In this document: piece after piece, positions 21,477 through 22,271 of the stretch
Layout: the number at the start of each line of letters is the position of its first letter
Position numbering within the stretch: position 1 is the stretch's first letter
Source of the DNA: Deltaproteobacteria bacterium
Lineage (GTDB): Bacteria > Calditrichota > Calditrichia > RBG-13-44-9 > J075
Assembly (NCBI GenBank): GCA_011526015.1
Contig: WYBG01000315.1
Coordinates: 1-44,555, forward strand
Reading direction: 5' to 3'
Length of the DNA: 44,555 bases
Notes under the pieces: generated by a model
Databases searched by the model: none
The model's input: only the letters and a program-made list of their open reading frames with translations
Told to the model about the DNA's origin: nothing
Position numbers and translations under genes: made by a program

Positions 21477-22271
21477 TCACATTTCTGGAAATGAATGAAT
21501 ACGTTTTAGCCAGCCTTTTAAAAAAACTTTTTGGCTGGGGTCTCTTTTAACTATCTTTTTGTAGAAATCAATGCGTCGCTTTTTATAAAGACGATAGACT
21601 TCTTTGGGGTCGGTTTCATTCAGAGCTTTCAGTGTATTCGGTCCGATACTGCCGTCAACTTGAATATTCGCACCCAGTTCTTTCAAAACCATTTGCAGAT
21701 ATTTAGCCGCGGTTGTAGGTCCTGAGTTTACAGCAAAATCAAACATAATATTTGCTAATTCTTGTTGTGGGATATCATCCCCCTTTATCTTATTCCAATA
21801 TTCTGCTCGGTAGATTTTAGCAGCCTGCTCTTTAGTAAGATTTTTAAGGTTCTTGACCGTGGGCTTGATGCCTAATATTTTTTGTGCGGTTCTCTGGAAG
21901 GTCCTAAAGGTGATACCCATATTGGTTTTACCGCCACGGTCTGCCGGATTATCTACCCATCCTCCCTCATGTTTTAAAAGAGTAGGGAAATAGGTATTAA
22001 AATCTGCCTTGTACTTATCTCGAAACAGCTCCCCTAACTTGAAATTCCCAATTGAACTATTTAAACCCAGAATCTGAGACTCCATATGTGCCGGCCAACT
22101 CATTTTTTGAGGTGCCATAAGTTCCGACAACCTTAAAGATTGTGATTCAATACCGCTAAATAAGGATTCTTGCGTTTTATGAGAACGACATTTTAATAAG
22201 CATTTCTTCTCTTCTTCCAATTGGCCTTTCGTTGGATATATAAAATTAACTTTCCCCATCTTTCGCCCCAT
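21477..22271 (-). CDS. GH108 N-acetylmuramidase plus PG_binding_3 domain with a ~95-aa N-terminal extension
   Basis: LLKHEGGWVDNPADRGGKTNMGIT is the GH108 catalytic motif. The C-terminus FDFAVNSGPTTAAKYLQ...VDGSIGPNTLKAL is the PG-binding domain. The gene is clearly AT-richer than both neighbours (hand counts 30% and 48% on two 60-nt lines, versus ~60% next door). Confidence 0.85.
   Translation of the reverse strand: MGRKMGKVNFIYPTKGQLEEEKKCLLKCRSHKTQESLFSGIESQSLRLSELMAPQKMSWPAHMESQILGLNSSIGNFKLGELFRDKYKADFNTYFPTLLKHEGGWVDNPADRGGKTNMGITFRTFQRTAQKILGIKPTVKNLKNLTKEQAAKIYRAEYWNKIKGDDIPQQELANIMFDFAVNSGPTTAAKYLQMVLKELGANIQVDGSIGPNTLKALNETDPKEVYRLYKKRRIDFYKKIVKRDPSQKVFLKGWLKRIHSFPEM

Follow-up and report, generated by a model that had tools for sequence, protein, structure and literature searches.

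An in-frame GH108 muramidase in the ATPase-to-cap slot of an extracellular contractile injection system operon: possible capture of a lysin gene as cargo

Why should a peptidoglycan hydrolase be encoded inside the structural operon of a contractile particle? The question is raised by contig WYBG01000315.1 of assembly GCA_011526015.1, listed as a Deltaproteobacteria bacterium and placed by GTDB in Calditrichota. Positions 1–44,555 of the contig were analysed and are referred to below as the window. It carries on its minus strand a complete extracellular contractile injection system (eCIS) operon, and between the genes for the eCIS ATPase and the cap lies an open reading frame (ORF) of 264 codons with the domains of a GH108 muramidase. 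A preliminary description of this DNA offered two readings, a payload carried by the particle or a lysin with which the producer releases its particles. We propose, with a probability of about one in two, that a lysin-type GH108 gene entered the cargo slot by in-frame recombination downstream of a leader and that its product may be the payload of a bacteria-targeting eCIS. Neither of the two original readings is provable in silico. The comparative data favour cargo, because the gene lies at the position of a toxin slot, has a forced N-terminal extension and has no holin or spanin gene alongside.

The ORF product is a catalytically intact N-acetylmuramidase of the endolysin type, with activity predicted. 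The domains recognized in the preliminary description were borne out by Pfam, as was the gene's place between ATPase and cap by the flanking genes: Glyco_hydro_108 (PF05838) covers residues 97–184 (E 2e-28; 99.1 bits vs a cut-off of 21.2) and PG_binding_3 (PF09374) residues 188–257 (E 1e-17; 64.5 bits vs 24.6). The top PHROG is 315, endolysin (E 3e-50), and relatives of solved structure are Brucella SagA (7DNP, E 2e-23), Neisseria NMB1012 (2IKB) and Salmonella TtsA (6V40, E 4e-16). The catalytic triad of SagA consists of E17, D26 and T31 (PMC8334348), and these align with E102, D111 and T116 of the ORF. Together with 13 other positions the triad makes up 16 residues that are invariant in an alignment of 47 homologues, and all are kept here. 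Since these residues are retained, and since the AlphaFold2 model has a confidence score (pLDDT) of >90 over residues 88–264, the enzyme core appears intact. The genome has no second GH108 gene.

Such family matches are also what a release lysin would show. According to this explanation, which we consider possible but doubtful, the enzyme is made with the particles and, after the inner membrane has been breached by a factor encoded elsewhere, degrades the producer's own wall and frees them; the N-terminal extension would be a regulatory or inert appendage, and the nearest parallels would be the lysis cassettes of R-pyocins and Afp and the muramidases of type 10 secretion systems (T10SS). The best matches are indeed to endolysins and to the NCBIfam model of holin-associated N-acetylmuramidases (NF040573), but the score with the latter, 92.4 bits, is far under its cut-off of 240. 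It should be pointed out also that the operon contains no holin, spanin or small ORF with a transmembrane (TM) segment, and that the muramidase has no signal peptide, signal-anchor-release (SAR)/TM segment or hydrophobic segment; no export route is evident.

The start of the muramidase ORF (M1) is 14 nt past the ATPase stop codon and its own stop is 55 nt ahead of the cap gene, all on the same strand. The 14-nt spacer leaves scant room for separate expression signals, and no minus-strand terminator-like site is present between the ATPase and cap genes. These properties suggest that the muramidase is co-transcribed with the eCIS operon, probably from a strong promoter match upstream of the ATPase gene (Table 1). 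Location in the operon would time the enzyme with particle production, as a release function requires, and eCIS particles do exit by lysis, with Afp having an adjacent lysis cassette that includes a lysozyme (PMC12961389).

Position argues for cargo. A set of 68 related eCIS loci from many phyla was retrieved by alignment of cap homologues, a single-protein search for cap relatives having returned none. Fifty of these loci show the ATPase gene and the cap gene together on one strand. The two genes abut in 10 of the 50; in ~33 the interval is occupied by eCIS_core-family genes and in 7 by other genes. Each of the ~33 loci has between one and three genes there, on the same strand and from one family, whose products consist of an N-terminal leader, eCIS_core (DUF4157, ‘PVC-metallopeptidase’) and a variable C-terminus (loci L024–L093), and eCIS_core is matched in 43 of 48 slot proteins. 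Recognizable C-terminal domains are Colicin-DNase, WHH, HNH, Endonuclea_NS_2, Toxin-deaminase, SsdA_C, OmpA (two proteins) and a subtilase. The two closest eCIS relatives, with cap identities of 59% and 55% and the same short sheath, have directly upstream of the cap gene a 1232-aa eCIS_core protein (L092) and proteins of 572 aa and 909 aa, the second with a Toxin-deaminase domain (L093). Slot genes of these two relatives have a guanine-plus-cytosine (GC) content of 0.40–0.43 vs 0.51–0.54 in their structural genes. Because the related loci hold such genes, the interval can be regarded as the polymorphic-toxin, or cargo, slot of the lineage, where low GC is typical. The earlier suggestion that the particle targets bacteria is in keeping with the Colicin-DNase, HNH, WHH and deaminase toxins that occupy this slot in other loci. 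The lineage itself is widespread, with members in Acidobacteriota, Chloroflexota, Actinomycetota and Proteobacteria in addition to the Calditrichota-like diderm described here, and the ATPase-to-cap interval is hypervariable across these phyla.

One slot protein, in L035, matches the N-terminal domain of Tse3, a muramidase of a type 6 secretion system, past the Pfam whole-protein cut-off. It is not established as a muramidase, and its C-terminal 550 aa are without a sequence match to solved structures. A possible second site was seen in L092, where a TIR_2-domain gene of 298 aa (L092:9295–10191; GC 0.377 vs 0.543 in its neighbours) lies between the cap and sheath genes and may mark a second cargo or insertion point.

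The preliminary description had asked whether orthologous eCIS loci carry the insert. No GH108 gene lies within 7 kb of the cap in any of the 68 related loci. These loci need no such gene at this place, and the gene lies in the toxin slot rather than in a flanking cassette; both points speak against a release lysin. On the other hand, a singleton raises the question of whether the gene has a role at all. It could be a recent, neutral hitch-hiker, a lysin fragment that inserted into a slot prone to recombination, no longer has its start codon and is expressed, if at all, only via a chance upstream ATG. The slot does take unrelated insertions elsewhere: occupants outside the eCIS_core family are often on the opposite strand, and opposite-strand genes are found in L034, L051, L058, L073, L077 and L081. 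We nevertheless consider this explanation unlikely, as all 264 codons are intact and the 16 invariant residues, triad included, are kept.

A foreign origin of the gene is well indicated by its composition. Its GC is 0.389, and GC at third codon positions (GC3) 0.366, whereas the ATPase gene has a GC of 0.515 (GC3 0.587), the cap gene 0.544 (GC3 0.639) and the genome 0.538. The extension alone, at 0.379, is like the core. Hand counts in the preliminary description had made the gene AT-richer than both neighbours, and this difference holds on calculation, although the ~60% GC given there for the ATPase gene comes down to ~52%. Separate acquisition, which had been deduced from those counts, is supported further by the lack of a counterpart in the related eCIS loci and by the closest relatives of the enzyme, which sit outside eCIS loci.

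The homologues also reveal what was acquired. More than 400 of them, from a collection of 5.8 billion proteins, align only to residues 88–264, i.e. the C-terminal 67% of the ORF. The closest ones, 74–75% identical, have 177 aa and begin with MADFN, which is aligned to K88-A-D-F-N here. Two of these (L007:3722–5341 and L008:2332–3976) lie in a conserved three-gene cassette composed of the GH108 gene, a gene for an 86–106-aa protein and one for a ~250-aa TM-coiled-coil-TM protein with a weak Rz-spanin match; a third close homologue is flanked by metabolic genes. The cassette may be a chromosomal lysis or T10SS-like module, and its lysis-type appearance speaks for a release function of the captured gene as well. 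However, the partner genes of this cassette were not found in the present genome, which is 88% complete.

Two other traces of origin were pursued and dropped. P0080, another GH108 protein with an N-terminal extension, has a housekeeping Bacteroidota-like context with no eCIS link. Flanking repeats were sought as an insertion signature, and only an 11-nt repeat was found, which is within chance. This exact repeat, AAGATGGGGAA on the coding strand (KMGK), is present at 22252–22262 and 22329–22339, 77 nt apart, with one copy at the ATPase 3′ end and the other at the start of the muramidase ORF, i.e. at the junction.

How the enzyme is joined to the slot can be read directly from the DNA. Homology to the homologues' loci at the DNA level and homology at the protein level both start exactly at codon 88. 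The ATG of the homologues is AAG at this point, and therefore the muramidase cannot start at the ancestral position; its core is joined at the former start codon to 87 upstream codons. The nearest in-frame ATG is M63, and an extension of 25–87 aa is possible. The preliminary description had put it at ~95 residues, which is an overestimate, as there are 87 residues from M1 and 83 from M5. Between the ATPase stop codon and codon 88 the frame is open in 89 of 91 codons, and the extension fills the whole gap. Only 0.08–0.2% of shuffled sequences reach such openness, there are 5 and 6 stops in the two alternative frames, and the homologues have just 4–13 open codons upstream of their own ATG. The open extension frame is more than a product of chance.

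This bears on both of the explanations already introduced. Loss of the ancestral start codon, together with weak codon bias in the extension and the lack of a homologue for it, is compatible with a hitch-hiking fragment, but a frame that stays open far past the nearest ATG (P ~0.002) is not what such a fragment should have. A release function, for its part, does not explain why the native start codon was lost or why an extension of 87 codons is maintained.

Sister contigs from other samples (L177, L178, L181 and L182) keep the ATPase–GH108–cap arrangement. A sister allele with an empty slot was sought, and the gene is present in all four. L177 is 95.5% identical overall, and its other eCIS genes differ by 3–10%, yet from window position 24811 to 20700 (~4.1 kb) the two are almost identical except for a sharply bounded patch of 320 nt across the ATPase–muramidase junction (Table 1). 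In the patch, ATPase codons 690–742 have 8 synonymous and 5 replacement changes and the 14-nt spacer has 3 changes. Muramidase codons 4–23 have 15 changes that result in 7 amino-acid changes, with a ratio of replacement to synonymous change (pN/pS) of ~0.4, and the frame, M1 and M5 are all kept; codons 24–264 are identical. The simplest reading of the patch is a recombination tract from a more divergent allele, and if so, the ATPase–extension junction would exist in further lineages.

L177 has a different spike-tip module and 3–10% divergence in its other eCIS genes and retains the muramidase gene; this is hard to reconcile with a neutral hitch-hiker, as is the pattern in codons 4–23, where frame and both ATGs survive. 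This retention may also be counted in favour of cargo. As a test of translation the patch is weak for codons 1–23: the excess of synonymous change has a binomial P of 0.03–0.1, and 44% of random sets of 15 substitutions likewise leave the frame open.

Other differences from L177 were noted. DNA identity is broken between window positions 15152 and 13752, and in place of the window's DUF2169 and PAAR-like pair (13840–15062) L177 has a single 119-aa gene (L177:10181–10540); it looks as if the spike-tip module has been swapped between strains. The most divergent part of the operon is the DUF4157/eCIS_core gene (stretch 17400–18200), with up to 52 differences per 100 nt, whereas most other operon genes have 0–10.

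If the enzyme is cargo, the extension should function as a loading leader. Slot proteins of related loci have in common a motif, [IL]LxLQxxxGNxAV, at ~35–55 residues from the start and preceding eCIS_core; in slot toxins it is often followed by DKYEQEADR. Two hidden Markov models (HMMs), built from related loci only, match the extension near its end (residues 66–83; Table 1) with 3.0–3.1 bits, E 0.005 (Z=1) and a shuffle p of ~0.001–0.003. This match is suggestive only. When the extension was compared by phmmer with 9,446 ORFs of related loci, several of the top matches fell on cargo leaders in the same register, each of them non-significant and none independent of the others. A search seeded by the L092 leader produced 7 proteins, too few for a clade-specific model.

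Physical properties point the same way. The mean Kyte–Doolittle hydropathy of residues 1–35 is −1.10, the third percentile of the genome, and that of slot proteins −0.87; a hydrophilic N-terminus has been reported for eCIS toxins (Danov et al., 2024; PMC11297309). AlphaFold2 gives the extension a pLDDT of 40–65 with low-confidence helices, and it is probably disordered. The extension is thus plausible as a leader. The packaging signal envisaged in the preliminary description is weakly supported, by the 3-bit match; the extension is hydrophilic, is modelled with low confidence and has no DUF4157 domain.

Several observations weigh against the cargo proposal and against a leader function in particular. 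Pfam finds no eCIS_core/DUF4157 match in the muramidase ORF, and there is none within two genes of it. By codon usage, the margin of the extension's frame is +1 to +3 vs 11–21 in real genes. The likeness to the leader motif was spotted by eye prior to testing, and for the ORF as a whole it falls short of genome-wide significance (one HMM ranks it 162nd of 68,902; the other was unremarkable). No credible homologue of the extension was found: when 1.84 billion representatives, one per 50% cluster, so that further extended copies could be hidden, were searched by phmmer, three matches resulted, all to repeat proteins. These Mib/Herc2-like proteins were rejected as spurious, because their E-values sum many weak repeats, and tblastn of the extension against the donors' loci and its own genome gave nothing. 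As no homologue exists, conservation of the extension can be tested in one sister strain at most. Lastly, the known roles of GH108 plus PG_binding_3 proteins are those of endolysins and of secretion or release helpers (TtsA, SagA). Glyco_hydro_108 and PG_binding_3 are ‘cloud’ domains enriched in eCIS operons, the former in 13 cases (odds ratio 9.3) and the latter in 12 (odds ratio 8.8), and Phage_lysis is enriched too (PMC8213781). The 13 published GH108 cases may be lysis-cassette enzymes, and this double enrichment favours a release lysin.

Wall-degrading enzymes are common on phage tails, and perhaps the muramidase is a part of the particle rather than its load. The extension would then dock the enzyme on the particle, e.g. 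on the cap or baseplate, where it would digest target peptidoglycan locally, at the moment of puncture, in the manner of the T4 gp5 lysozyme. The precedent of phage tails, the location of the gene directly upstream of the cap gene and the small, intact enzyme are compatible with such a function. However, known tail lysozymes are joined to a spike or tape-measure protein, as the muramidase is not, its sequence could be linked to no structural protein of the eCIS, and no equivalent exists in the 68 related loci. We consider a structural role very unlikely.

Under the cargo proposal, the muramidase would be translated from M1 or M5 off the operon transcript. The extension would act as a system-specific loading sequence, to be recognized by the AAA+ ATPase, which would thread the muramidase into the lumen of the tube. 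When the particle contracts on a target bacterium, the enzyme would be freed in or near the periplasm, where it would cut peptidoglycan of the diaminopimelic acid (DAP) type, and the delivered enzyme could be a killing toxin, a penetration aid or both. No immunity gene would be needed, because the enzyme would stay in the cytoplasm of the producer.

Precedents exist for parts of this scheme, and it should be stressed that its novelty is modest, since earlier papers have described both the enrichment of GH108 in eCIS operons and an eCIS toxin that hydrolyses peptidoglycan. EAT10, from the eCIS locus of Pseudoalteromonas luteoviolacea, has been validated as a peptidoglycan hydrolase, with a toxicity that is 10^4-fold higher when it is in the periplasm (Geller et al., 2021; PMC8213781), and 68 predicted eCIS toxins with peptidoglycan-binding domains were counted by Danov et al. 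(2024; PMC11297309). The present enzyme resembles these eCIS-associated toxins in being a peptidoglycan hydrolase with a hydrophilic N-terminus encoded in an eCIS operon. It differs in its position between ATPase and cap, in the lack of DUF4157, in a leader without homologue and in its derivation from a free-standing 177-aa lysin-type gene with a lost start codon.

In AlgoCIS, loading needs a disordered N-terminal domain and the AAA+ ATPase, and DUF4157 is dispensable (bioRxiv 10.64898/2026.05.27.728243). We propose a likeness to its effectors Cgo1 and Cgo2, in that a disordered, system-specific N-terminal domain is joined to an effector and an AAA+ ATPase gene is present in the operon. Cgo1 and Cgo2 retain DUF4157, which the muramidase lacks, and the likeness is one of architecture only, with no N-terminal sequence similarity claimed. 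With the leader-plus-DUF4157 toxins of the related loci (L024–L093) the muramidase shares slot, orientation, low GC relative to structural genes and the weak leader-motif match. It is, however, without eCIS_core, has 264 aa vs 420–1550 aa, and ends in a muramidase where slot toxins end in a nuclease or deaminase.

Other GH108 enzymes, TtsA of Salmonella Typhi (T10SS; 6V40) and SagA of Brucella (type 4 secretion system; 7DNP), serve the producer's own secretion machinery. They belong to the same two-domain fold family and have the Glu/Asp/Thr triad residue for residue, but they act on the producer's wall to let a toxin or secretion machine pass, have no long N-terminal extension and are encoded outside eCIS operons; the machine linked to the muramidase here is an eCIS assembled in the cytoplasm. 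A lysozyme is encoded in the lysis cassettes of tailocins and Afp (PMC12961389), which comprise holin plus lysin in R-pyocins and endopeptidase–holin–lysozyme upstream of afp on pADAP. The similarity is that a wall hydrolase is encoded with a particle that leaves the cytoplasm. The window, by contrast, has no holin or spanin, and its lone gene with a forced N-terminal extension lies inside the structural operon at the toxin slot.

If the muramidase is cargo, bacteria are the targets of this eCIS lineage, and its payloads include wall-degrading enzymes besides nucleases and deaminases. It would follow also that payloads can be renewed by recombination of an ordinary lysin gene, in frame, behind a leader in the ATPase-to-cap slot. 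A useful feature of the locus is that a natural occupant of the toxin slot has a short leader and no DUF4157; for eCIS engineering, such a leader would be a candidate loading tag. A more speculative extension, to which we assign rather low odds, is that the leader is a minimal, DUF4157-free loading signal left from the leader of a displaced toxin, which lets the ATPase load an unrelated endolysin-derived enzyme as a natural experiment, and that the 320-nt patch marks a co-evolving recognition interface. If the enzyme is a release lysin instead, the locus would represent holin-less, single-gene particle release in a bacterium of the Fibrobacteres–Chlorobi–Bacteroidetes (FCB) group.

Table 1. 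Features of the muramidase ORF and its surroundings, in window coordinates
Feature	Positions	Strand	Basis or remark
Sigma-70-like promoter match upstream of ATPase gene, TTGATA-17-TATAAT, 11/12	24927..24955	-	
WHD + AAA ATPase, eCIS AAA+ type, Pvc15/Alg15-like	22286..24517	-	Pfam
320-nt patch, 32 differences vs L177, sharply bounded	22190..22511	-	ATPase codons 690–742, 14-nt spacer, muramidase codons 4–23
Whole muramidase ORF, 264 aa: orphan N-terminal extension, then GH108 + PG_binding_3	21477..22271	-	Pfam, PHROG, PDB
N-terminal extension, residues 1–87	22011..22271	-	In-frame ATGs at M1, M5, M52, M57, M63
Residues 66–83 (QILGLNSSIGNFKLGELF), weak leader-motif match	22023..22076	-	Two HMMs, 3.0–3.1 bits
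Codon 88, AAG (Lys), opposite ATG start of closest 177-aa homologues	22008..22010	-	Homology start
Enzyme core, residues 88–264	21477..22010	-	Triad and 16/16 invariant residues kept; AlphaFold2 pLDDT >90
Cap/terminator, Pvc16_N + CarboxypepD_reg	20540..21421	-	Pfam

The operon begins with the ATPase, muramidase and cap genes and continues with sheath, tube, a DUF4157/eCIS_core gene, a LysM tube initiator, spike, DUF2169, a PAAR-like tip, gp25, Baseplate_J, a gpI-like protein and a fibre with a Peptidase_G2 chaperone domain. The eCIS_core gene (17289–18260), which encodes 323 aa and lies more than two genes downstream of the muramidase, is the only one in the genome, and as the eCIS_core search has this core gene as its sole match, a DUF4157 toxin is missing from the genome. 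The host is an uncultured FCB-group diderm, itself represented by a metagenome-assembled genome, with 147 T9SS (type 9 secretion system) sorting domains and Omp85 proteins encoded, and its rpoB shares 78% identity with that of a Calditrichaeota metagenome-assembled genome. In 40 related genomes an eCIS was not found, the only match being to the CarboxypepD_reg domain.

Upstream of the operon there is a strong terminator-like hairpin on the plus strand (25375–25405), and ARAGORN finds no tRNA in window positions 24500–25700. Two ORFs at 7219–8307 and 8324–8545 have no match in Pfam or NCBIfam; the first encodes a protein of 362 aa, which is an alternative cargo candidate. Downstream of the eCIS genes, a sensor kinase gene and response-regulator–CHAT genes (1688–7155) have a GC of 0.34, below that of the muramidase gene, which marks them as a separate foreign block.

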